A stretch of 64,000 nt of DNA from Carcharhinus longimanus (lineage: Eukaryota): the NCBI GenBank assembly GCA_030264375.1, contig JASCQW010000190.1, positions 80,686,575 through 80,750,574 on the forward strand. The letters run 5' to 3'. Position 1 is the stretch's first letter; each line of letters starts with the position of its first letter. The notes beneath the pieces are model-generated. The model did not search any database and was not told where the DNA came from. It worked only from the letters and a program-made list of their open reading frames with translations. Position numbers and translations under genes: made by a program. Shown here piece by piece: positions 1 to 35,084 of the stretch.

Positions 1-261
1 ACAATACACATCTCTTTAATCTGTGCTTAACCCTCTCTCCACTCACATTGTCTGTACCTTTAAGACTTGATTACCTGTAAAAGCTCGCATTCCAACCATT
101 ATTCTGTAAATTGAGTTTGTGTCTTTATATGCCTTGTTCGTGAACAGAACTCCCATTTACCTGACGAAGGAGAAGTGCTCCGAAAGTTAGTGGCTTTTGC
201 CAAATAAACCTGTTGGACTGATGTGTTTAGCCCAGTCTAACGCCAGCATCTCCACATCATG
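1..261 (+). mobile_element. Penelope-like element 3' end (pLTR and tail) with a degenerate hammerhead motif
   Basis: Same sequence as the copies at 20385-20755 (-), 29755-29904 and 34224-34495. CTGACGA...GAAA motif at 161-185. Family tail ccagtc.aacgcc.gcatctccacatcat. Confidence 0.75.
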
Positions 262-2318: not shown

Positions 2319-3039
2319 TGCTGTATCAGCCTTAAGTAGCTCCCAACATCCAAGCCATGAATTGCATCAGCTAAATCATGGAAATGGGCCATTTGTTTAA
2401 TCTCTCAGCCTGTCTCAGGTTCCTGGAAATGTACAGAAATGGTAATGAGGGGGGTGTGGGAACCAGAGAGATGATATCATTGCTCACATGGCCTCTAAGA
2501 ACAGTCTAATATTTAAAATCTGAAAGTACAAACTGACTTGTATTCTGATCCATGGGCAGCTGTAACCCTCATATTTAACCCAATAACCGTTCTTCATTTG
2601 TGTAATTCATCAAATAAACCAGTGTGCGGCGGAGGGAAGGGGGGAGATTTAAGCTCAATTGTGCACTCACTTGACAATCACAGATATTATCTTTCCACCA
2701 GGGATCACTGATCAGTTTCCTGATTGCTCACTTCATGAGTAATTGTGATGAACCCAAGGTGCTTGAAAATGCGGATCGCACTATCCCATGGGATGTTCGA
2801 AGCACATTGATGTATTTAAGATGCGTAGATCAGATTGTGAAGAAATAGTTAATGTCCATGTTTCGTTGGCCCAAAAACGTGACCCCAGCCTGACCAAACA
2901 AAAACTTTCACAAGTGTCCTTCTTAAAGTACCACTAATAATTAAACTAAACATAAACATAAAAAGTCATGAAAAGAAAGATATACCTTCCCTGGTATGTT
3001 TATTGGTATACAATAAATGAAATTATTGTAATAGAAATA

Positions 3040-3192
3040 AAATGCTGCAGAAATTTGAAATAAAAACAGAAAATACTGGAAATACTCAGCAGGTCAAACA
3101 GCAGAGTCATCATGACCTGCAACTCTGTCTCTGTCTGTCTGTCTCTCTCTCTCCACAGATGCTGTCTGAGTATTTCCAGGATTTGATTGTTG
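3040..3192. repeat. Short palindromic (fold-back) repeat, likely Penelope-derived or MER6-like; degenerate relatives near 39915-40030 and 57900-57985
   Basis: ctggaaatactcag (about 3076-3089) is inverted as ctgagtatttccag (about 3166-3179), around a tctg/tc microsatellite. Confidence 0.5.
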
Positions 3193-3547
3193 TCTCTCGC
3201 GATGTCCACTGGTAGTGCACTGGTATGCACTGCAGTAATTCGAGTGGGATGAGGCTTGAGTGGAGTGGATGCACTGACTGGACAAAGAGGTTGAGTAGCC
3301 TATTTCTACGAAGTTCTATGAAATCGTGTCCGATCACTTACACTGTGAGCTAAACGAACCCCGTGACATAATTTTATAAACAGGTTCCCTTCTTTTCCCC
3401 AAAAGAATACCATAGCAATTTACTGCACAAATGAAACTCTATTATTTAATAACGTCACAAGCCTTTTGAAGTTTATTGGAAAACTTTGTAATAATGAATG
3501 TAATATCTGAACAATTCACTGGTCCCTCCCTTTTCATTCCATGCTAA

Positions 3548-3630
3548 GTAATCTCACAACACCACGTTAAAGTCCAAAAGGTTTATTTGGTAGCATGAGC
3601 TTTCGGAGCGCTGCCCCTTCATCAGGTGCG
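3548..3630 (-). mobile_element. Penelope-like pLTR fragment with hammerhead motif
   Basis: Reverse complement reads GCAC-CTGATGA-A-GGGGC-AGC-GCTCC-GAAA-GCTC-ATGC-taccaaataaacc. Confidence 0.75.
3593..3629 (-). ncRNA. Minimal type I hammerhead ribozyme motif
   Basis: Core CUGAUGA and GAAA, stem II GGGGC/GCUCC, palindromic AGCU mini-stem III, cleavage triplet CUC, and stem I GCAC/AUGC (one mismatch). Confidence 0.6.
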
Positions 3631-3639
3631 TGCCAATGG

Positions 3640-3952
3640 AATTCTACAGTACAGAAAGAGGCCATTCAGCCCATTGAATCCATACAATCCCACCCAGGCC
3701 CTATTCCCATAACCCCACATATTTACCCTGCTAATCTCCCTAACACGGGGGTGGGGGGGTGGAATTTAGCTTGGCCAATCCACCTAACCTTCACATCTTT
3801 GGAGTGTGAGAGGAAACTGGAGCACGTGGTGGAAACCCACACAGACACAGAGAGAACATGCAAACTCCACACAGACAGTGCCCTGAGGTTGGAATTGAAC
3901 TGGGCCCTGGCGCTATCAGACAGCAGTGCTAACCACTGTGCCATTGTACCAC
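3640..3952 (-). mobile_element. HE1/V-SINE-type SINE, near full length (CR1-type tail)
   Basis: Reverse complement starts ggtacaatggcacagtggttagcactgctg and ends ggcctctttctgtactgtagaatt. Confidence 0.85.
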
Positions 3953-4014
3953 CAGCTGCTTCTACTCACACCATGTGAAATGTGTAATATCCCAGTAACA
4001 ATTCTCCCCTACTT

Positions 4015-4240
4015 TAAGAGATCCAAACTGACAGGGTGGCTGCTTTGTAGAACAGCTCCATTCAGCCCGACCCTGAGATTCAAGTAAATCAAGTCCTTTT
4101 CATGCTCCACTTTCTCCCTCCCTGAGCTTGGCTTCCTACTGTGTCAATGAAACTCAACATAAGTTCAAAGGCACATTTTTCACTTTGACACTTTATAGCC
4201 TTCTAGATTCAACATGGAGTTCAACAAATTCCGATCATAA
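4015..4240 (+). mobile_element. Old Penelope-like GIY-YIG endonuclease C-terminal relic
   Basis: Degenerate match to GE(T)KR.L..RF.EHL...LGTL.P.G.N.EFN (gagatccaaa...gctttgtagaacagctcc...acactttatagccttctagattcaacatggagttcaac). Confidence 0.4.
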
Positions 4241-4599
4241 CATCTACCCCATTTCTTTCAGACAGTACTTTTGCTGGTGATTCTGCTGTTGCTATTTCCT
4301 CCAGACCCAACTTTTGTTTATTTATTTGTCCTGGTATCAGTGTGGCAGGAGCCATTTGGGCCATAAAAGTGCGGCTGCCAGAATTTTACTAGTAGCTGGA
4401 CACCACCCTTACCACATATGGAGGTTAGAAACTTCTTGGAGACTATCTGTAGCCACTCGGTGGAGGCAGTGGGGGAAGTGGGGGATGGGAGGGAGAATGG
4501 GAGGGGAGGGGAATAACAGTATCTCTGTTATGATTGAGAATGGGCAGAATACAGTATTCCAGTTGTATTGGAGTGATGTCACCTGCAATGGCTGTAACA

Positions 4600-4873
4600 A
4601 TAAGGTAGTAAAGATGCAACAAATTTCAATGTGAATCAAAACAGGCCATTATCGATTATTATAAAAATCCACCCGGTTCACTAATGTCCTTTAGGGAAGG
4701 AAATCTGCCATCCTCACCTAGTCTGGCCTACACACAACTCCAGACCCACAGAAATATAATTAACTCTCTAAAAAATGTCCGAGAAAGCCATTGAGTTCAG
4801 GGTAATTAGGGATGGGCAATAAATAAAGGCCCAGCCAGTGATGCTCACAGCCATGAAAGAATGAAAAAAAAAC
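4600..4873 (+). mobile_element. Second tRNA-derived SINE family (other copies 22500-22810 -, 48020-48655 -, degenerate 23880-24070 +)
   Basis: Shared core ggttcactaatgtcctttagggaaggaaatctgcc...gactccagacccacag and tail agggatgggcaataaat...ggcccagccagtgatgc...aatgaaaaaaaa. Confidence 0.7.
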
Positions 4874-5784
4874 TCAACATGATGTTTTCTAGACTGAAGA
4901 ATAAAAACAAAGTTTGGAATATATGTTGCCACAGCTATTTTACATTTTAATTGCATGTAACCTCTTCCAGGATGGACGATTTTATTCCGGTTACTTTATT
5001 CCTTTGGAAATATTACTAATTTGACCATCCTGGACCCAGTAAGAAGAGCCCCAACCATCCAGGTTCCCTTGCTACTGGAATTGGAGTTAGATCTGGTGGT
5101 GGATTTACGGACTCCTTTTGGTTGTGTAAATCCAGTCCGGGTTTTCCCTCTGGTGGTGGCTGCTCATTGAGCTGGGTGTGCACAAATATCTGTGCAGAGA
5201 TCCTGTTAGGTTGGGTGTGAGGATAAGCTGTAAAAGTTTTCCTGTTGAGAGTAACAATGTTTTGGAATGGTGGCTTCCTCTTAACACCTGATGCAATTGA
5301 TCAGAGAAGGTAAAAGTTTCTTTGTGCTGATTGTTATACTGATGCTGGATATTTAAAGCTTAATTGTTACTAGTGTGAATCCATGTTTTGGAATTTTTGT
5401 CTCATTTTAGAGGAAGCCAATAATCCGTCCTGCCCTAAAAAAAAACACGCATTTAGAGCCTGAGTTATTTTTGTTTCAGTAGCTGGTTGGATTTCTTTCT
5501 ACCATGTCTGTTTTTTCAATCAAGTGAGTGCTTTATGGTAATAACAGCACTCTGACTGTACAATAGCTAGTTAGATTCAGAGAAAAGTAACTATCTCCCG
5601 TCTAGTTAAATATCTTCTCCTGCCCCAATCCCTTCTCAGTCAGTGCTATTTGGTGAGTTATTTGTGTTATTTATTGTTAGGGTTTGAGAATGTTGTTTCT
5701 CTGGTGAATTGTACAGAGCTAACGCAGAAAGAGGGTGAGGCCATTCAGCCCTTCCAGCCTGTTCTTCCATTGAGTTGGACTATG

Positions 5785-6068
5785 GGTGGCACGTTGGCAC
5801 AATGGTTAGCACTGCTGCTACACAGCTACACAGACCTAGATTCAATTCTGGTCGTCGTGGATCACTGTCTGTGTGGGTTTCCTCCTGGCGCTCGAGTTTT
5901 CTCCACAGTCCAAAGATGTGCAGGTTGGATTGATTGGCCATGGTAAATTGCTCTCTGTCAGAGGAGACTAGCAAGGTAAATACATGTGGTTACAGGGATC
6001 GGGTCTGGGTGGGATTGCAGGCTCCATGGGCTGAATGGCCTCCTTCTGCACTGTAAGGAATGTATGAT
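5785..6068 (+). mobile_element. HE1/V-SINE-type SINE (CR1-type tail)
   Basis: ggtggcacgttggcacaatggttagcactgctg head; ends gggctgaatggcctccttctgcactgtaaggaatgtatg. Confidence 0.8.
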
Positions 6069-6869: not shown

Positions 6870-8700
6870 TCTAAGAAATTCCATATCACTGGTCATGTGT
6901 TCTGTGGGTCCTTGCGTGGCTCATGAACCCCAACTCTGACTGCACATTTTTCAGGTAGTTCCTGGAGGTGGGATTGATCCTTGGACTTGTAATTGCTGAC
7001 ATTCCTTTCTCGGGTTCCTTTAGGAACCTCATCTTATCGTCAGGTGTTCTGAAGAATTGTGTCCCTTCAATCAGGTAAGTTTCTTCTGAGCATTGATGTC
7101 AATGTTGCATTACTTGAAGTAAGCCTTCAGGGTGTCTTTGAAGTGCTTCCTTTGTCCTTCTCTTGTTCGAGATCCTTCCTTAATCTGGGAGATGATTTGC
7201 TTTGGCATCTTGAGCATCTAGCCAGCCCAGCAGATTTTGGATGATCATGGCATCCAGCAGTCATGTGCAATGGTCATTACTTTGGTGATGAGGATATCCT
7301 TTTGGCTTCGGGATCAGAAGATGACGTGATTGATCCTGTGCTAGTGCATTGATTGTGGATGTCTCCAGAAGGTCTTGAATTTGTCTTTGAAGTGGGACAA
7401 TGTTAGTGATGTCAATCTGCTGTTCCACAGATTTAGTGGGCAGGAGAACCCTGTTGGAGCTGCATTTCCCAACTCCGTCCTTTCCAATGGATCCTTTCCA
7501 GAGTTGGGAGTCCCTTCCAACTGTGGAGTTGAAGTCCCCAAGGAGGATAATCTGATCTTCCTTACAAATGTTGGAGAGAATATGGCAGGTCTGTCATATG
7601 ATGAGAGACTAAGTTGGCTAGGATTGTATTAATCGGAGTTTAGAAGTGTAAGACGGGATTTCATAGAAACTTATAAAATTCTAACAGAGTTAGACAAGTA
7701 GGTTCGGAAAATATGTTCCTGATGGTGGGGAGTCTAGAACTAAGATCATAGTTTGAGGATAAGGGATAAAACTTTTAGGAAAGAGGTAAGGAGAAATTCC
7801 TTCATCCAGAAGGTGGTGAATTTGTTGAATTCCCTACCATAGAAAGTAGTTGAGACCAAAACTTTGTGTGATTTCAAGAAGAAATTAGATATTGTTCTTG
7901 GAGCTACAGGGATCAGGATATTGAATCTGATGATCCACCATGATCAAGATGAATGGTGGAGTAGGCTTGAAGGGCTGAATGGCCTAATCCTGCTAGCTTA
8001 CATGAGAATATAGTGTCCAGGGTGAAGTAGAAGCCTTCTTCAGAGTCGGCATCAAGGGTTGGGGCATAAGCACTCACGACCATTGTCTGTTGCAAGGAAC
8101 CAAGTTGTAGGTGGAGAGTCAGGAGGTATTCATTGATGCCCACGGAGCTCTGAGAATCGGTTGAGTTTGTTCTTGATGGTGAATCCAAGTCCATACTTCA
8201 TAGACTGAACCTCGGATTTTCCACTCCAGAAGATATAACCATAGCTTTCTTTCCATAACTGCTTTGTCAGCTCCTTGGGTCTCTTGCAGGGTAGGGATGT
8301 CAATATTAAAGTGTTTGAGTTCACGGACAACTATTGCAGTTCTCCGTTCTGGTTAACTGTTCTGCTTGTTTTCCATGAGGGTTTGTACATTCCAGTTCTG
8401 AGATTGAATTGAACTTTGATTTTGTAACTGCAGGTTGATGAGCCTGCTGGATGTGGTTTACCAGCCAGTTTGCAGACAGAGCAGACTATTTTTAGGCCAT
8501 CCATTCCTAGCCCTTTCCCAGTGCAGGTGAGCTGAGTGGATCCTGAAGAGGACTGCTCAGTTGTGAAGAAAGGTGCTCGTATTCCAAGAGTAAAATGGCT
8601 GAATCAAACTCCGCTGCCCACGTACTAGCCCAAAGCTAGGGACTTCCAGATTGCACAGTCCTGTCACTGCTCGTTGTTCACCGCAGGCCTGTCTGAGTTG
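6870..8700 (-). mobile_element. RTE-clade (BovB-like) LINE 5' region with endonuclease relic, interrupted by a CR1 insertion
   Basis: APE motifs GYIFWSGK...GLGFTIKN, VVSAYAPTLDADSEEGFYFTLDTIFS|NICKEDQIILLGDFN, and KTFWRHPQS.H are typical of RTE endonucleases. Confidence 0.75.
7584..8003 (+). mobile_element. 5'-truncated CR1 LINE with 8-bp TSD, nested in the RTE element
   Basis: MAGLSYDERLS.LGLY... CR1 C-terminus and 3' tail gggctgaatggcctaatcctgct. GAGAATAT is duplicated at 7576-7583 and 8004-8011. Confidence 0.85.
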
Positions 8701-11520: not shown

Positions 11521-12624
11521 TGTTTCTTTGCTGGCAGAACCAGTCCCCTATTTTTAACATTGTTCCGAAGGGGAAATTGGTTTACCACCTGGAAACTGAT
11601 TGGGTTGCAAGTCCGAGGATTTCCTGTATTACAAGAGCCTAACTTGCCCTCCCCTAAAAATCCCCATTCCAGCAGCAGTCATTAGAGAGCAATGGAAAAT
11701 TTTGCTAATTTTTTTTTCCTTTGGTACCCTGGGGAAGCTGTGATCAATTATACTCTAATTGCTGTTCAACCTTGGATCAACTAACAATATAGAGATTGAT
11801 TGACTCATCGCCTTTGTGGTCCAATATCTCGCACAGCATTGTATTTACCCCAAAGCATTGATGGAACTCCATTGGTTTATAATTAGTGCACTCTGGAGGG
11901 ATTCCAGCCTGTCCATGTGCTGTTGTTATCTGAGAGTGACTGCTGCTACAATTCTTCCTTCGACCTTGACCTAGGGATTGTAGCCAACTCTATTTTATCA
12001 TTTAATCTACTTCTGCTCTCTCGTGTGGTTTTGAACATTGTCACTGTTGGTGAAAATTAGGAGCAAATCAACTTCAAGCCGTTTTCGAAAATCAAAAATT
12101 ATATACAATTTTTAAACATTTGTGCTGTTAGTTCCCTCCAGCATAAGGAAGTTGGGGTTAGTATCAAGAACTAATGGTTCTTACTGCATACAGCATCCGT
12201 ATTGACAAAGAAGATGTTTGCGTGATGCTATATTTATATAAATCATTCTATGTGTGGAGGGATGTGCTTGGGTAGTTTACTATTCAGATAACCTCCTTGC
12301 CTTGGTGTTTTGTTTCTAGTCCATTGAGTATCATTTTTTTCCCTCTAATTTTTCTGTTTTTAAAGACACTGATTACTGCTTTATATTTGTACAGGTTTTT
12401 TCTACTATTTTTTCCAGTACTCGGTCTTCATTTTTTAAATTTATTATTGTCATGTACTAAGATACAGTGAAAAGTATTGTTTTGTATGCTATCCATATAA
12501 ATCATACCATACATAGCTTGCCATGTTGTGACGCCATCTTGAAACATGGATATGGTCAATCCACAGTGTGATCAATAACACACCCCCATTCTCTTTCTAC
12601 TCCCTGGGTAGAATTTTACCATAT

Positions 12625-12732
12625 GAAGTCTGACAACACCAGGTTCAAGTCCAACAGATTTATTTGACTTGAACCTGGTGTTGTCAGACTTCTTACTGTG
12701 TTTACCGCAGTCCAACGCCGGCATCTCCACAT
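12625..12732 (+). mobile_element. Penelope-like fold-back fragment (27-bp perfect inverted repeat plus 3' tail)
   Basis: gaagtctgacaacaccaggttcaagtc (12625-12651) and gacttgaacctggtgttgtcagacttc (12666-12692), then the tail cagtccaacgccggcatctccacat running into an N gap. Confidence 0.8.
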
Positions 12733-20384: not shown

Positions 20385-20755
20385 CATCTGACAACACCAG
20401 GTTGAAGTCCAGCAGGTTAACAGGTTTATTTGGTAGCACAAACTTTCAGAGTGTCGCTCCTTCGAGTGAGGGGTTGTGTTCACAAACAGAGCATATATAG
20501 ACACAAACTCAATTTGCAAGATAATGGTTGGACTTTGAGCCTTTACAGGTAATCAGGTCTTCACAGATACAGACAATGTGAATGGAGAGAGCGTTAAGCA
20601 CAGGTTAAAGAGATGTGTATTGTCTCCAGCCAGGACAATTAGTTAGACCTTGCAAGTCCAGGCAAGTCGTGGGGGTTACAGATAGTGTGACATGAACCCA
20701 AGATCCTAGTTGAGGCCATCCTCATATGTGCAGAATTTGGCTATCAATTTCTGCT
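20385..20755 (-). mobile_element. Penelope-like element: GIY-YIG ORF C-terminus and 3' region; hammerhead core partly deleted
   Basis: Minus strand reads QKLIAKFCTYEDGLN*DLGFMSHYL*, followed by sequence homologous to 1-220. Confidence 0.8.
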
Positions 20756-20953
20756 AATAACTTGATAGCCGGCATAGAACTCCCCAGGCCCCTGATTGCC
20801 ATCTCCTTCCACTCTCAAATAAAGGATTACTGGTGTGATGAATTTTTTTACATTTCTTGTTTTAATCAATAATTTCTCCAGTAAATTTTCTCCAAATGCA
20901 TTAAAACCTTGGGCCTGATTTTTTTTTACCACATCCCTGCTATCTGGCTTTTA

Positions 20954-21030
20954 CAGTAAAAAGTCTGACAACACCAGGTGTTGTCAGACTTTTTACTGTG
21001 TTTACCCCAGTCCAACGCCGGCACATCCAC
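20954..21030 (+). mobile_element. Complete miniature Penelope-like fold-back insertion with 12-bp TSD
   Basis: 23-bp perfect palindrome arms (20953-20975 and 20977-20999) plus the family tail. ATCTGGCTTTTA at 20942-20953 and 21031-21042. Confidence 0.85.
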
Positions 21031-22169
21031 ATCTGGCTTTTAGGCAGGGGTAGTATAAAAGAGAAGGAACAGACTTCCCTCTGGGTTCCTGCCCACCCCA
21101 ACTTTGTAGCATTTCTATGCTGGGGTGGACAATGCCCACGGATGGGCTGCTTGCCCTTGCCCCAGTTAAGTCCCGAGCCATTTAGGGCTATTTTCCGCCA
21201 AGNNNNNNNNNNNNNNNNNNCTGACTGAGTTCCTGGGAAAGGGGACGGTGGGGGCACCTTCACCAGATGTCACTTTCTGACTTAGGTCACCACCTCCTTA
21301 AGGTTGCTGGACCCAATGCCCCAATTGCCCAATTTCCACACCTGAGACCCTGAAACTTACCTTGCCTTCCAGTCCCAGGACTTGGACTCAGCCATCTTCA
21401 GTCACTTCCTCTCCTGGCCGTTGCAGCTCCAGCCATTGCAGGAACTGGGACTTCAGAATGAGGGACGGAAGTCATGCTGAACTGACCCCCATTATAAATT
21501 ATATTTGTCATTGCCTCGTAAATGGTAACATAGATATTGTACCCACCCACCCAGAGGATGTTTTGTTTTTTTTTAAAAAGTTCATTTGAGAGGCATGGGT
21601 GTTGCTGGTTGGCCAACATTCATTACCCATCCCTAGTTACCCATGAGAAGATGGTGGTGAGCTGCCTTCTTGAGTCGCTGCAGTCCACATACTGTGGGTT
21701 GACTCTCAAATCCTCAGAACCTTTCCAAGTGATATTAAACATGGAGCAATATTATTTTATCAGTTGAGGGAGGACGATGAATAGTAATCAGGACATTTGT
21801 TGCCCACGTTTGACTTCACCCGAAAACTCATTGACTCCAGATCCCATGTTGAGGACTCCCACCTCTGTCCTGCTGAGACAGGACATAGTCAGGAATGGTG
21901 AAGGAAGAGAATGAGACATTGGCTGAAATACCTGATTTGCTGATGCTTGATTTACACAAGTACCCAGATTTTAATGAGGAGAACTATATTAAGTCGACTG
22001 GTCACGTTGTACCACCGTCGTTTTGCGTGCCTAGGTTGATGGCAAGTGGCCTGTCTGGCTTTATTCTCCTTAGACTTTGCTGTAGCAGATTGATGCAACT
22101 GAGTGGAGGGGGGTGTGGGGAGGAAGGGTGAGAGGAAGGAGGGGAGTGTGGGGAGGAAGGAGGGGGGGA

Positions 22170-28244: not shown

Positions 28245-28366
28245 ATGAAGGGAGTGATGGATAGTCACCTGGACCTCAGCTTCCTGACGGAGGATGAATA
28301 TCAGGCAGTCTTGAGTGTAATACAGAGAGATTCTGAACTCAAAAAAAGAGATAATGAGCGAATCAA
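28245..28366 (+). CDS. SYTL2: Synaptotagmin-like protein (Slp2/SYTL2-like), coding exon 1: SHD1 helix of the Rab27-binding domain
   Basis: Translates MKGVMDSHLDLSFLTEDEYQAVLSVIQRDSELKKRDNERI(K), matching the Slp-family DLSFLTEEE..I..V.QRD..L...E..R motif. In-frame stop upstream at 28143. Donor AA|GTAAGA after 28366 (phase 2). Start may be ATG 28245 or ATG 28257 (better Kozak context). SYTL2 versus SYTL1 orthology is not certain. Confidence 0.9.
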
Positions 28367-29754
28367 GTAAGACCTTTGTTTTATCAACATTTATTCACCT
28401 AACAACTGTAACTCAGTCTGTGCTGATAATTGCTCAGTATTGTAATGTAGCAACCACACCTATGTGCAGGTGTAGACTCGTCACCCTTGAGATATTACAA
28501 GAGCTCCAAATGTATGGGAATGCTCCCAGGCTTTGGTCTGTGACAATTTTTCTTGTTTTAGTCATCAAAATTCATTACAAGCTCTTTCCTAGTTTTCATC
28601 CTCAATTTCCTAAATTATCATAAATCCATTGCCAACTCCAGATGCCCAGAAGTAGTCTTGATAAATAGCATTCAAAAATGTTGGCAGTGTATTGTGATGC
28701 TCTAACTAAAACTTTTCATCTGATGTTGTGTGCCTGTGTTTTGCTGCCATTTGCTCACCTTGATCAATCAGCTTCACATCATACAGTGCATTTCCTCATG
28801 TACTACTGGATTATCGAGCTTTTTGAGAAATGTTCTAGCCCATAGAAATTTCAGCACTTAAAGGAGTCATGTTGGCAGCTTGTACTGATTTCTCCAACAG
28901 AGACTGCTCCCAAAGATGTCCCATTTCAAACACCAGTGATGGTATTTGATGTGGAGAATTCTGTCCAAAGTATTGGTACCTTAGTGTTGATCACATGAGA
29001 ATGGCTACATAAGAGGTCACGTGACAGCACGGGAATTATTCCTGGGATCTCTGGCAGAGCACAAGTACTGTATATAGCTATTGAGTTTAGGAGTAAATCA
29101 CCTTTGTTGGAAGTCTTTGATGTTGGTGATTTGAAGAACATGTGACATTCTACATGGTATCGAGAGTTGGCAGCATGTCACACAGACTTTGCTGCATCAA
29201 CCTGCTTGTCTTTGATGAAAATATTGCAGGTAGTTTTGAAGAGTTCCAGAAGGAATAGCGTATTTACTGCCGCACTCTCTGACACATCACAAAAGGTATA
29301 GGCTTTTACCCTATCAAATCTCACATTCCCCGAAACTATTGAAAATTTGAGTCATTTGTCTTCCAGCCAGAGAAGGAAAAAAAAGTCCCCAAAGTAATCT
29401 TGAAATAATTTGAGAACGTTTGAATCCCAGTTTAAAAAAAATCCAATCCTGGATAGACATGTTTCCAATTTCACAAACCAGAAAGCAGATGAGTCAGTGC
29501 ATCTTATAAAGCCACCCTAAAAATACTGGCAAAGAAATGTGTTCAGCACTCTCAATAAAACCTAATTGCAGACTGATTAGTTTGTGATACATAGTGACTT
29601 CTAGTCCATAAGCAACTGCTGTGAGAAAAAGGCTTAATGTTATAAGTAGCCAACAAAGTAAAATAAAGCAGAAATTTTAGGTAGGAAACCAAAATATTTG
29701 CAGTACAAGGGTACACCCTGTTCCAACTACAGTGGCCAGCACCCACTGACCAGA

Positions 29755-29904
29755 ACAGCTTGCTCCTTCGTCAGGTAAGTGGGAGTTCTGTCAGTGGGAG
29801 CTCCCACTTACCTGACGAAGGAGCAGCGCTCCGAAAGCTAGTGGATTTTGCTACCAAATAAACCTGTTGGACTTTAACCTGATGTTGTGAGACTTCTTAC
29901 TGTG
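29755..29904 (+). mobile_element. Penelope-like pLTR fragment with inverted 5' arm, inserted in the Gypsy element
   Basis: 25-bp perfect inverted repeat (29761-29785 and 29801-29825), then family sequence running into an N gap. Confidence 0.8.
29808..29844 (+). ncRNA. Minimal type I hammerhead ribozyme motif (best-preserved copy)
   Basis: UUAC-CUGACGA-A-GGAGC-AGC-GCUCC-GAAA-GC-UA-GUGG: intact core, 5-bp stem II, AGCU palindrome, and stem I UUAC/GUGG. Confidence 0.65.
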
Positions 29905-30130
29905 NNNNNNNNNNNNNNNNNNNNNNNNNNNNNNNNNNNNNNNNNNNNNNNNNNNNNNNNNNNNNNNNNNNNNNNNNNNNNNNNNNNNNNNNNNNNNNNN
30001 NNNNNNNNNNNNNNNNNNNNNNNNNNNNCACTATTGCGATATTGATAATATCACAGGAAAGAGTGAGATCATCACTAATCTTAACATAGTTAGCAGTATT
30101 GCCAGATTTAAAAGTCAAGATTGATTTTGG

Positions 30131-30471
30131 CCTCTTAAGGTCAAACCACATAAACAAACTCAAATTAAATCAGGACAAAGTAAAAGGGGCAGCTCTCCAA
30201 AAGGAAGGGGAATAGCCCGAACAAAATCAAAGTACAAAGGAAACTTAAAAACATCAAATTAAAATGTGATTATAAGGGTCAATAATGCACCCCAGCCTCT
30301 GCAGTGCACAACGGGCGCGGAAGGTGTCAACTGCGCCTGTGGATACCGCTTGCTCCCTCTCCAGGGACACCTGGCTGTGAATGTAGCCGCAGTTGAGGGG
30401 CAGGCAGTCGGGATGGATGGCCCCCTCGATTGCTTACTGCCTGGGCCTGTAAATGGCGCGTTTCACCAGGC
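30131..30471 (-). mobile_element. Tx1 (L1-clade) LINE 3' end with 15-bp TSD
   Basis: Minus strand reads GLVKRAIYRPR...HPDCLP..GYIHSQVSLEREQAVSTGAVDTF...CIIDPYNHILI*. CAAGATTGATTTTGG at 30116-30130 and 30472-30486. Confidence 0.75.
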
Positions 30472-33400
30472 CAAGATTGATTTTGGAGCAAAGCATAATG
30501 TGCTACCAGCCAAAAGTTACAGGAAGTAGTCTATAAGCAGCACCTGACTCTAGCACCTAGACATACCTTGAGGCTTATGGTGAACAGACAAGATAAAGGC
30601 TATATAATAGATGATCATTCCTGTAGACAAGCATGACTTACAGCACTTTTCTGGTATGACAAATTATCTTTCTATGTTTATCCAATGTTATAATGAAGAA
30701 TCATCTCGTCTCATGAGACTAGATATACCACCGATAATCTGTGCTCCAAGAAGAGTACCATTAGCCATGAAGCAGAAGTCATTGGATGATGGCACTAGCT
30801 GTCATTACTCTTCTGGATGAGGCCATGAAATGGGTTTCAGCAATGGTGGCGACAGTAAAAATAGCTGGCATACTCGGAATATGTATTGACCCAGTGTATG
30901 TGAATAAAATGCTGCTCAGACCACATCACCCTATGAAGACAGTGGAACTGGAGGAAGCAGACGTGCCAAATGTTCAGCATTCTCAATGTGAAATGTGGGA
31001 TCTGGCAAATCCTGCTGGATGATGAATCCTCAAAAGTAACCACATGTCTCCAGTAGGAATATTTCATTTTCTTTGTATGCCCTGTGGGATCTCCACTGGA
31101 AGCGAGGTCTTTTAGTGGTGCATGGAGCAACTCTTTGCAGGCCAAGTTTTCAAGAGCATTGTTGCTGACATCCATGTTTGGAATCGTACAATGTAGGACC
31201 ATGATACATATCTGCATCTTGTCCTTAACAGAATCAGGACCATTTTAACCTGACAAAACGCAGATTCGGGGTCAACCAGGTTCCTTACATGGATCATTCA
31301 CTCACAGCCAATGGTGTACAGCCGACATACAGCACTTTCTTGGTATGACAAATTATCTTTCTACCTTTATCCCGTGTCATAGTGAGGTCACTGAACCTCT
31401 TTGTTATCTTCTCCACCAGGATGTCAAATGGTACTAGCAAAAGTATCACACCTAGGTCTTCAACAAACTCAAACATGTGCTCCCAATCCCACCAATATTA
31501 TAATATTTTGATGTTTGAACACCTATACTTGTGTCAGCAAATGCCTCCCAGCATTGTAGCCTGCATCCAGAATGATAGACAATAGCCTTTGCTTCGTATG
31601 CCCTCACTGACACTGAGACTCTCTGTGCACCGATCAGAAAGGCACTCCTTGCTCTAGTTTTTGCTTGCCGGAATGAAATCCTACATCACACAAGACTAGA
31701 TGATTCAATCCCGCCAAGTCTGTGCCCTGAGAAGTATACCAGTAGCCATGAAGCAGAAATCATTGGTGAGCTCCATTGGATGATGGTGTCATTACTCCTG
31801 TAGATGAGGTCATGGAATGGATTTCAGCAATGCCCCTGAATCATAACTAGATTAACGAAGCTCTCCATCTGCACAGTTGTCTGATAAAGTTGCAATGCTA
31901 CAGCCTCAATGCCATCTACGAATGTGGCAAAGAGCTGTACTTGGTTGATGCCCTTTCCAGAGACTTCATACCCACTATGGACCAGGCAGATCGTGAGGAA
32001 GATGTAGATATTATGACAATAGAGCTGTTTTCTCACTAAATACAGGAACTCAAGCAGGCTTTACAGACAGAAGGGCTGTGAGAATCCTCAAGGAGCATCC
32101 CCATTCACACATTCTTCGCCATCAGAGATGAGCTGACTATACGGAATGGGCTAATATAATGCGGCCAATGATTCGGCATCCATGTTGCTTTTCAGAGATA
32201 ACAGACACAACAACTTCACCAAGGTTACTCTGTTTTGGAAGCATCCAGATACTGGACCAGAGAATCACTACACTGGCCCTCAATTTCCGCAGACACGGAA
32301 AGGAAATCTCCAGAGGTGTGCCGTGCTATATAGTCCAGCCGCTGCACAAGGTCATTCGCAGCAGCCCACAGCTTCAAGTAGGATGCAAACAAAAAGTTAG
32401 TCTTAGTTGATTCATATTCCAGGTGGTTTGAATTTGATTACTTGCCAAACACGATGAATAAAACAGTAATCATTAGGCTTAAAAGAAACTTGGACACTTA
32501 CGGCATCCCACAAAGACTCATGAACAAACAACATTCAGCAATTCATTTCTGCTGAATTTCACAACTTTACACGCATGAGACTTTGGATTTCAGTATTGCT
32601 GAAATCCAATCCATGACCTCATCTATAGGAGTAATGACACCGTCAAATGGTCTGGCGGAACAGGTGTTTGCTCAGCCAAGCGTCTTCTCAAGAATGTGCA
32701 TGAGATCACTGCAGCCCAAACTTGAAACCAACATCAATGAAGTTGTCCTGCAGTGCAGATTAAGGTGCAAAATACATTATGATTGAGATGCCTATAAACT
32801 CAGCCCTCTAACCCCAGGTGAAACAGTCAGGATTCAGACTACACATGACCATGACCAGTTAGTGGTGGTACATAGCAATGCCCCAAAACTGAACAGCTAA
32901 TGGCAACCTCAGATGGTGTCCACTATGTACGCAAATACCATCACCTTTTGTAAGTATCAAAATCAGCACCAATGATAGCACGGCACTTCAGCCACCCAGC
33001 CTTAGGCACCAGCCCCCTGCATCAGTGGACATGCATATCCTATGGAGGCCAACGCAGCAAGTCCTGCAGCTGCCAAACACACTGAAACATCCAATATTGC
33101 TAATAGTGAAAACACTGACCAGAGAAAGATGAACAACACCACCAACAGGTGTAATCCATGTTCAGACTGCCGGCACAAGCCAAACACAAGATTCCAGAAC
33201 TTTATTGCTGTTCAGCCAAGAACTGACTTTTTCAAATTTCAGCTTTCTTTCTAGCAGAAAAGGCGGGGTTGATAAAGAGACACAACGGGGCGATGCCTAA
33301 TCTGTGCCCCTATATATGTCACACAGAGGCCTGTACAGTTTCCTATACAGCACACTTTTTATCTCTCATGTCATTGGGTGTCCTGAATAAATGAGGAAGA

Positions 33401-34223
33401 TGTAGACCGGGAGGTGACTACAAAAAGATCACCTGGTGGGAGTAGAGGAGTTATTCCCAGGATCTCGGGCAGATCACAAATACTGTATATAGTTGTTGAG
33501 TTTAGGAATAAACTACCTTCATTGGAAGTCCTTTATCAGTGATATGAGGAACACACAACATTCTACACCTGGCAATCCTTCTATTTTTCTTCTTCTAAGC
33601 ATTGTCTCGGTCAGCCATTGTTCATATAAAACTGTTATTTTATTACCTTTTGCAAATGGAAAATTCAGATGCTTGTACTTACTGTCCTACACCATTGATC
33701 AATTACAATGCAAATAACTTGAGTTTAAATAATTAAGATGTGGCTCGTGGCTCAGTCACCTGGTCCCAGAAAAGTGTTATCTCTATTTTCTCAGCTATGA
33801 CCTAGCAATCATGTTGTTGAAAACACTTAACATGCCAATGTTACTCAGTAAGTGGTTTAAAGCACTCCCCAGATTTGGCTGCAATTGTGCCACACACTGT
33901 TTCAAGGGGGAGATTAGAAGTGTTATATTTGTAAAGGGTGCACAATACACACACTATTCTCAGTGAAATAGCACATCATTAGATTTATTATAAGCTATTA
34001 AGGTGATTACAGATACCACACTGCCAGAAATGGAAAGCAATCTTAAAATACTGATGCTTCTGAACTGGCAATTGACTAGCACGTCATATTGAAGAAACTT
34101 TGATCAAACTGTAAAACTTTGTGTCCATCTATTGTATTAAGAGTTACTGCCTTGGACTAATTTTGTCTCTTGAAAGACGTTGTCAGCATTACAGCAGAAT
34201 AATACTCTGTGTCATGTTGTAAT

Positions 34224-34495
34224 CAAAGTAAAAAGTCTGACAACACCAGGTTTTAGTCCAACCTATTTATTTGATAATATACTCACTAGCTTTCGNNNNN
34301 NNNNNNNNNNNNNNNNNNNNNNNNNNNNNNNNNNNNNNNNNNNNNNNNNNNNNNNNNNNNNNNNNNNNNNNNNNNNNNNNNNNNNNNNNNNNNNNACCCA
34401 GGCAAGTCACGGGGGTTACAGATAGTGCGACATGAACCCAAGATCCCTGTTGAGACCGTCCTCATGTGTGCCAGTCCAACGCCGGCATACCCACA
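34224..34495. mobile_element. Penelope-like insertion: long inverted arm plus short sense tail, with 12-bp TSD
   Basis: The minus-strand arm ends in THEDGLNRDLGFMSHYL coding sequence, followed by the plus-strand tail ccagtccaacgccggcatacccacatcatg. TCATGTTGTAAT at 34212-34223 and 34496-34507. Confidence 0.85.
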
Positions 34496-34932
34496 TCATG
34501 TTGTAATGACACACTAATGGGAGCATTATCCAATTTATTGCATGTGCTACAACCATGATTATTAAAAGATTAGTTTCAACCACAAGTGAAATTTTAATGA
34601 GATATTTCTTGTGTATGAACAGGTCCGCGATCACCCTTTCAGAACTACTTATGATAATCATCAGCACGCGGCCTTGAAACGTACTCTTAGTGTTTGTGTG
34701 TAACAGCACATAGAGGTCTTCAAGTTTAAAATCAAGATAGCAATGGTTGACTGGTGAATTTTAACTTGTAATTGATTATTACATTAGTTTTAGCAATGCA
34801 CTTTCAAACCTAGAAAAGAATTGCCCTTTTCTCCTCCACTCTCATTTTGACTAGGAGACTGTGACACTGGAATGTAAGCTTTGATGTGAGGAAACCTGAA
34901 TGCTGTTTGAAAACCCTCTCCTCTTGCTTCAG

Positions 34933-35084
34933 GACAGCACAGAAATCCATCCAAGATGAAAAGAGAAGAAAGTTAATTACTGGCCAGTGGTTTGATGAAG
35001 TTAAAGCAAAGCGTTACCGGAATTCTTTACTTGGAGTGGACCTGATCAAGACCTCTATAAGGCAGAAAAAACCCAAAACGCACG
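34933..35084 (+). CDS. SYTL2: SYTL2-like coding exon 2: SHD2 with the TGQWF motif
   Basis: Acceptor ctcttgcttcAG|G completes the AAG codon (phase 2 match). Encodes TAQKSIQDEKRRKLITGQWFDEVKAKRYRNSLLGVDLIKTSIRQKKPKTH, resembling Slp2 SGQWF.EAKAKR.R....G.DII..S.R.K.P. Donor G|GTAAAT (phase 1). No Cys-rich zinc finger between SHD1 and SHD2. Confidence 0.92.

Follow-up and report, generated by a model that had tools for sequence, protein, structure and literature searches.

A Penelope-like element remnant with a minimal type I hammerhead motif in a shark SYTL2-like intron, probably held inert by a predicted hairpin

Does a hammerhead motif that lies in sense orientation within a host intron cut the pre-mRNA that carries it? 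This question is raised by positions 29808-29844 of a 64,000-nt stretch of the Carcharhinus longimanus genome, referred to here as the window. The first-pass annotation of this DNA described a minimal hammerhead of a Penelope-like element (PLE) family at these positions, placed it in a SYTL2-like intron, and implied that it works as a self-cleaving site within the host's pre-mRNA. We examined in turn the motif and its surroundings, the element family from which it derives, and the fold predicted for the intronic copy.

The motif and its host intron

The plus strand at 29808-29844 reads TTAC CTGACGA A GGAGC AGC GCTCC GAAA GC TA GTGG, and parses as the proposed minimal type I hammerhead with an AGCU palindrome (Table 1). 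The defining features of minimal hammerheads (min-HHRs) are present: the CUGANGA and GAAA boxes, U16.1-H17, the bulge, G10.1-C11.1 and a palindromic 15.2-16.2. Helix III is absent and stem I is weak; the CpGs of the motif are all unmutated. A structure descriptor comprising both boxes, both stems and the palindromic mini-helix was passed by the 29.8-kb copy alone in the window, and a loose pattern (CTGANGA-N4-30-GAAA) gave 13 matches against 7.2 +/- 2.5 by chance, which is weak on its own. A look-alike on the minus strand at 7006-7043, with CUGACGA, a GGUUCC/GGAACC hairpin and GAGAAA, fails the descriptor, lies outside this PLE family, and was rejected.

Table 1. Coordinates of the motif, its parts, the host gene and the related element copies in the window.
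Feature	Positions	Strand	Remarks
SYTL2-like first coding exon	28245..28366	+	Slp-homology domain, residues 1-41
Host intron	28367..34932	+	GT...AG, phase 2, 6566 nt
SYTL2-like second coding exon	34933..35083	+	3' edge approximate
Minimal type I hammerhead motif	29808..29844	+	stems, boxes and palindrome assigned below
Stem I	29808-11/29841-44	+	UUAC/GUGG, 4 bp including two G-U pairs
CUGACGA box	29812-18	+	
Bulged A	A29819	+	between positions 9 and 10.1
Stem II	29820-24/29828-32	+	GGAGC/GCUCC; G29820-C29832 is G10.1-C11.1
GAAA box	29833-36	+	
Palindrome AGCU	29836-39	+	palindromic 15.2-16.2
H17	A29840	+	predicted cut 29840/29841
5'-truncated pLTR end carrying the motif	29798..29904	+	matches the column majority of 70 other copies at 101/107; enters N gap
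Assembly gap over the insertion's 3' end	29905..30028		124 nt; could conceal more element sequence
Antisense partial pLTR copy, left arm	29761..29788	-	left edge may reach ~29738, rearranged
Short inverted duplicate of 29784-29802	29738..29756		part of the junction, likely several template switches
pLTR copy with tail	1..258	+	hammerhead 157-193, 4-bp stem II, broken palindrome AGUU; preceded by N gap
pLTR end	3545..3629	-	core intact, G-U in stem II, C-A mismatch at stem I closing pair
Longer 3' remnant	20387..20780	-	end of endonuclease frame, 3' UTR, pLTR; CUGA of the core deleted
Other-subfamily copy	34224..34502	-	N gap 34296-34395; 3' half of motif only; inverted tail 34471-34502

Exon homology and intron boundaries support the placement of a sense copy in a shark SYTL2-like intron. 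Two plus-strand exons encode a Slp-homology domain and are predicted to join in frame across the intron. The second is 69-90% identical to synaptotagmin-like protein 2 of sharks and rays (31 matches, the named ones all from cartilaginous fish), the top PDB match is Slp2, and tblastn of the best-matching protein returned seven exons, from 28245 to 61691. Because the intron is bounded by GT...AG and by an in-frame join, the motif is placed in sense orientation 1.4 kb downstream of its donor. In a sequencing run with presumed RNA, which is a guess only, an exon contig ceases to fit at the donor and unique cover of the intron is absent; this says nothing about cleavage, and contigs cannot show RNA ends.

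All five hammerhead copies or remnants named in the first-pass annotation were found as it described them, and the four outside the intronic site are antisense, broken, or both. The copy at 3593-3629, which is antisense to the SYTL2-like gene, retains the intact core and the G-U pair claimed for it, with the stem I closing mismatch as an addition to that description. The shortened stem II of the copy at 157-193 is joined by a broken palindrome, and the copies reported at an N gap (34.3 kb) and with a deletion (20.4 kb) are both on the minus strand. Since the 100 N of the gap at 34296-34395 fall short of the ~250 nt of element expected between its flanks, this gap is probably a placeholder. Two further segments, 12622-12732 and 20953-21033, are short palindromes made up of the family 3' end and tail only, without a hammerhead; the former produces a spurious mir-3015 Rfam match below the gathering score. 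The 3.6-kb copy adjoins a tRNA-headed SINE-like repeat (3630-3960, minus strand), which we take to be HE1/V-SINE and which recurs many times in the window.

The Penelope-like family, its abundance and its constraint

Exact matches to a 32-nt core pattern number 479 in the shark's own genome; the reversed pattern, used as a control, has none. We then sampled ten large contigs at fixed steps, taking 100 segments of 10 kb that together held 879 kb of non-N sequence. A profile built on the sequence downstream of the motif detected 66 arms in this sample and none in reversed sequence; 37 of them span the whole motif (38 before a false minus-strand parse, L223, was removed), the core is retained in 16, and 8 are complete. 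Most genomic copies have decayed, only 8 of the 37 whole-span copies being complete. Rfam covariance models gave no hammerhead match at E <= 10, in the whole window or locally. An independent structure descriptor found nine complete motifs in the 1-Mb sample, all of this family, with 0 and 0 in the reversed and complemented controls. Because the core-pattern and descriptor matches stand against none in the controls, the 29.8-kb motif is not a chance occurrence. At the level of sequence, it is confirmed as a genuine minimal type I hammerhead in a pLTR remnant. Scaled to 2.68 Gb, and assuming that the sample is representative, the counts correspond to ~1.8 x 10^5 arms and ~24,000 complete motifs (95% range 11,000-46,000), an abundance that agrees with the earlier suggestion that the family may have seeded many motifs of the self-cleaving type in this genome. 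At one sampled locus, L136, two complete same-strand motifs of different subfamilies lie 1.6 kb apart (3596-3643 and 5241-5287, plus strand), both with AGCU and with stem II probabilities of 0.92 and 0.51, which makes them a natural candidate for a heterodimer cleavage test. A reading of this pair as one tandem element was rejected: the sequence between them has no ORF match, and each is a short insertion of its own.

By its predicted domains the family is an EN+ PLE with a reverse transcriptase (RT), a GIY-YIG endonuclease at the C terminus, an inverted 5'-truncated pLTR and an optional tail. The family was extended by walking upstream through related loci, which led to endonuclease fragments and then to the RT frame. 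Positions 2639-5902 of locus L121 hold a near-complete, frameshifted element in the order inverted pLTR (2639-3165), tail, ATG, RT frame, GIY-YIG frame and 3' UTR, the tail leading directly into the ATG that opens the likely ORF. RT, linker and endonuclease run in one direction in the frames of L121 and L086, both frameshifted copies. A 485-residue frame matches RVT_1 at E 1.9e-6, and one of the three endonuclease fragments scanned (L036) matches GIY-YIG at E 2.7e-4, each just under Pfam's curated cut-off. Homologues carry PF00078, in some cases together with PF01541; those in other sharks reach ~80% identity, and RVT_1 joined by GIY-YIG occurs in more remote ones. The frames of L037, L045 and L060 contain a C-X4-C-X2-C linker, whose first Cys is changed in L086; from the motif only, this linker suggests the Neptune clade. 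The presence of RT, GIY-YIG, pLTR and tail in related loci upholds the original assignment to a Penelope-like family. A shark gene model named epn2 isoform (P0046) fuses the element's RT region to host domains, by misannotation or exonisation.

The arms have two 3' end points, which differ by a tail of ~40 nt: of the 66, 31 are tailed, 29 are short and 6 could not be assigned. An opposite-strand arm lies within 1.5 kb of 35 of them. A direct tandem pLTR-ORF-pLTR unit was not seen in L121 or L122, both of which are broken by N gaps. The distance from H17 to the likely ATG after the tail is 97 nt in five of the six measurable copies. In an active element the ribozyme would follow the 3' UTR and precede the start of the next ORF, with ~97 nt separating it from the post-tail ATG, and tandem transcripts would be cut to unit lengths by a dimer formed via the AGCU palindrome, probably aided by an element protein. 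Reverse transcription may have two internal start sites, both downstream of the motif, in which case even short insertions, and most truncated ones, would carry it; template switching would have produced the inverted junction at the 29.8-kb site.

Core conservation and stem II covariation, which had been put forward as a check on the motif, are present at the family level. The conservation set consisted of 70 copies picked by upstream sequence, from which 10 truncated ones were removed to leave 60. Across nine non-CpG core positions, the 70 copies contain 14 mismatches in 615 against 44.7 expected, and the 60 copies contain 11 in 534 against 30.5 expected from base-matched flank. This deficit was kept in 8/8 control variants (p 1e-5 to 0.02); at non-CpG positions the core shows roughly one third of the variation found in the flank. 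Subfamilies in the unbiased sample carry the stem II pairs GGAG/CUCC, GAGG/CCUC, GGAA/UUCC and GGGG/CCCC. Double Watson-Crick changes in stem II number 10 among 37 copies; shuffling gave a mean of 4.2, with 10 or more reached in 5 of 5000 shuffles, and a second test gave 13 against 6.4 +/- 2.1 (4/500 shuffles). The covariation amounts to about three independent events, and a compensatory change is seen in one copy only among the 70 near relatives; in three rows of alignment A1, stem II is displaced by one column. As the copies are related, the conservation and covariation p-values treat them as more independent than they are.

H17 is A, U or C in 63/63 near relatives with U16.1 and is G in 2/36 copies of the random sample. 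The bulge is A in 37, and the palindrome GC in 33, of 38 parsed rows. G12, a catalytic base of the hammerhead, lies in a CpG and is changed in 21/67 copies; at the loop end of stem II, the G of the CpG is changed in 20/66. Pure neutrality of the motif is rejected at the family level, the core being steadier than the flank in every control, and purifying selection on inserted copies is likewise rejected, the decay of G12 being equal to that of the neighboring CpG. Since G12 decays at the neutral CpG rate, selection has likely acted on source elements, not on inserted copies. The simplest reading of these patterns is that transposing source elements are constrained and their inserted copies are not; selection would preserve the core in the sources alone, with neutral decay, mostly at CpG, once a copy has been inserted. 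The many copies thus allow source-element selection (constant core, covarying stem II, H17 rarely G) to be separated from neutral decay after insertion (G12 at the CpG rate), and this split bears on whether these ribozymes matter for PLE transposition.

The same constraint could reflect a non-cleavage role in active elements, such as a protein-binding fold, an RT-positioning fold, or a splice or promoter signal, the motif being a hammerhead in shape only. In the available text on an anole element, catalytic mutants left insertion in vitro unaffected (PMC11167929), PLE clades that thrive without a hammerhead are described in the portion available of PMC8557442, and the antisense strand at the junction of stem I and core is a consensus splice donor. 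We consider this reading unlikely, given that the catalytic bases are the most constant of the motif, that variation sits where catalysis tolerates change (N7, H17 rarely G, loop II and paired changes in stem II), and that the anole homologue is described as cleaving with its protein (PMC11167929, in part).

Predicted masking of the intronic copy

The 29.8-kb motif is overlapped by an inverted repeat, 29761-29788/29798-29825 (28 bp, 96% complementary), that was overlooked in the first-pass annotation. Its upstream antisense arm is a copy of the motif's own 5' half, and the predicted 30-bp hairpin would bury the 5' arm of stem I, the CUGACGA box and one half of stem II. The region with the inverted repeat has a predicted fold of -84 kcal/mol (z -7.7). 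The predicted pair probability of stem II is 0.96-1.0 without the arm and 0.000 in 4/4 windows that include it; that of stem I is also 0.000 with the upstream arm, and the hammerhead fold is predicted to be inaccessible in its native context. The predicted cost of imposing the hammerhead fold is 4.1 kcal/mol when the arm is left out and 25.3-27.8 kcal/mol when it is included. Because the antisense arm is transcribed first, the hairpin is predicted to close as the core emerges; in prefix folding, the hairpin grows while the core is being transcribed. The AGCU duplex is worth only ~-4.5 kcal/mol by prediction, and a co-fold of two 37-mers yielded a stem II swap, not a double hammerhead, a calculation that is uninformative for a 4-bp helix. 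No intact same-strand dimer partner is visible in the 64-kb window, the only other plus-strand copy lying 29.6 kb upstream and bearing AGUU.

Masking of this kind is predicted to be common, without being the rule, across the family. Of 30 loci with an exact core, an antisense match lies no more than 1.5 kb upstream in 14, and the stem II probability falls below 0.01 in 12; among the complete motifs of the random sample, 2/9 have an antisense partner within 2 kb.

The hairpin region has further features. Its antisense arm spells CAG/GTAAGT at 29772-29780 (plus strand), a look-alike of the consensus 5' splice site inside the predicted hairpin; it is the sole AG-GTRAGT in the intron and is nearer to the consensus than the real donor, AA/GTAAGA. 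The common family variants TTAC and TCAC both yield GTRAGT on the opposite strand. The near-perfect 30-bp intronic hairpin at 29759-29825 is a candidate ADAR or Drosha substrate.

Taken together, these predictions make it very probable that the 29.8-kb motif, as a pLTR remnant of an abundant EN+ shark PLE, is inert at its intronic site, because the upstream antisense arm is predicted to trap the core in a 28-30-bp hairpin. Capture of the core by the first-transcribed arm and the lack of an intact same-strand partner in the window argue against the working cleavage site implied at the outset, and cleavage of the SYTL2-like pre-mRNA is unlikely because of the predicted hairpin and because published members of the class, in the sections available, are slow or protein-dependent (PMC4209133, PMC11167929).

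More broadly, shark genomes would contain complete minimal hammerheads by the tens of thousands, variable in stem II from one subfamily to another and united by a single AGCU dimer interface; long shark pre-mRNAs with two AGCU copies, or with one copy together with an element transcript and protein, could be cut, and fold-back insertions such as the 29.8-kb one would be a self-neutralized form tolerated in introns, hiding both the ribozyme and an opposite-strand donor; we hold this to be a distinctly improbable proposal. Cleavage of host pre-mRNA by intronic copies, were it to occur, would burden sharks with a great many hidden sites at which RNA is cut.

That the intronic copy itself is an active or conditionally active ribozyme, cutting the SYTL2-like pre-mRNA with the help of a helicase, of A-to-I editing, or of a protein and a copy in trans, is very improbable. 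The sense orientation, the complete motif with its intact CpGs and an insertion arm common to three organisms would fit such activity, as would the AGCU shared among subfamilies (GC in 33/38 parsed rows), which could supply many partners; amniotes too have conserved type I hammerheads in introns, according to the accessible part of PMC6155905. These points are set against a predicted penalty of 25-28 kcal/mol, the missing helix III and weak stem I, the want of an intact same-strand partner in 64 kb (the other plus-strand copy being the distant one with AGUU), and the slow or protein-dependent behavior of the class as partly documented in PMC4209133 and PMC11167929. The intact CpGs and the antisense arm common to three organisms fit either luck or retention.

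An assembly artefact beside the gap, with the true locus unmasked, is hardly credible: the copy does abut an N gap and no contig bridges both arms, but unique intronic contigs cross the antisense arm to 29789/29790 in three runs, which represent three organisms whose flanks differ by up to ~3%, and inverted arms are typical of the family (35/66) and, in the text available of PMC8557442, of PLEs. Trapping in the hairpin is the reading that we carry into the comparison below.

Comparison with known systems

Literature searches found no published description of a shark PLE hammerhead, apart from the retrozymes that a 2026 preprint, in its accessible part, reports in one chondrichthyan genome (bioRxiv 10.64898/2026.07.22.740005). 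Those non-LTR retrozymes likewise carry type I hammerheads related to PLE pLTRs; they form head-to-tail tandem units without an ORF, whereas the shark copy is a solo, inverted PLE end. The amniote intronic hammerheads (RECK and others; PMC6155905, in part) resemble the shark copy in being type I, sense and inside a host intron. They are conserved across amniotes, whereas the shark copy is one of many thousand, without helix III and predicted to be masked.

Other parallels are found among EN+ PLEs. Poseidon_Ac (PAc) of Anolis carolinensis (Frangieh et al. 2024, PMC11167929), as far as the available text describes it, shares with the shark family an RT with a C-terminal GIY-YIG, a pLTR hammerhead, and two 3' end points that define a 30-40-nt tail. 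The two differ in that the PAc ORF runs from stem II, with the tail 111-118 nt inside it, and in the shark family motif and tail precede the likely ATG. PAc is described there as cleaving only with the element protein; insertion in vitro does not require this cleavage, and the site is reported to show no RNA-seq ends. The CX4CxxC linker of the shark family points to Neptune, not to Poseidon as in PAc. Neptune-type EN+ PLEs, in the portion available of PMC8557442, have a C-terminal endonuclease, a CX2-5CxxC linker and CCHH-like residues, as well as an inverted 5'-truncated copy beside the 5' end and a tail, all of which the shark family resembles, its clade being judged from the motif only.

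The motif also resembles the PLE min-HHRs of PMC4209133, as set out in the accessible parts of that report: type I topology, a short helix I, a bulge between A9 and 10.1, G10.1-C11.1, a palindromic 15.2-16.2, location in the pLTR, several subfamilies per genome, mostly solo copies from truncated elements, and opposite-strand pairs. For a metazoan min-HHR, these parts give no cleavage of the monomer and low cleavage of the dimer. The words shark, Callorhinchus, Leucoraja and Scyliorhinus are absent from two of its three supplementary files. The present family differs from those systems in its shark host and in its estimated ~24,000 complete motifs, which exceed the 4,000 reported for coelacanth and 9,000 for Xenopus, counts obtained with different descriptors. 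The PLE-borne minimal hammerhead class has been known in print since 2014, and the shark family is a further example of it.
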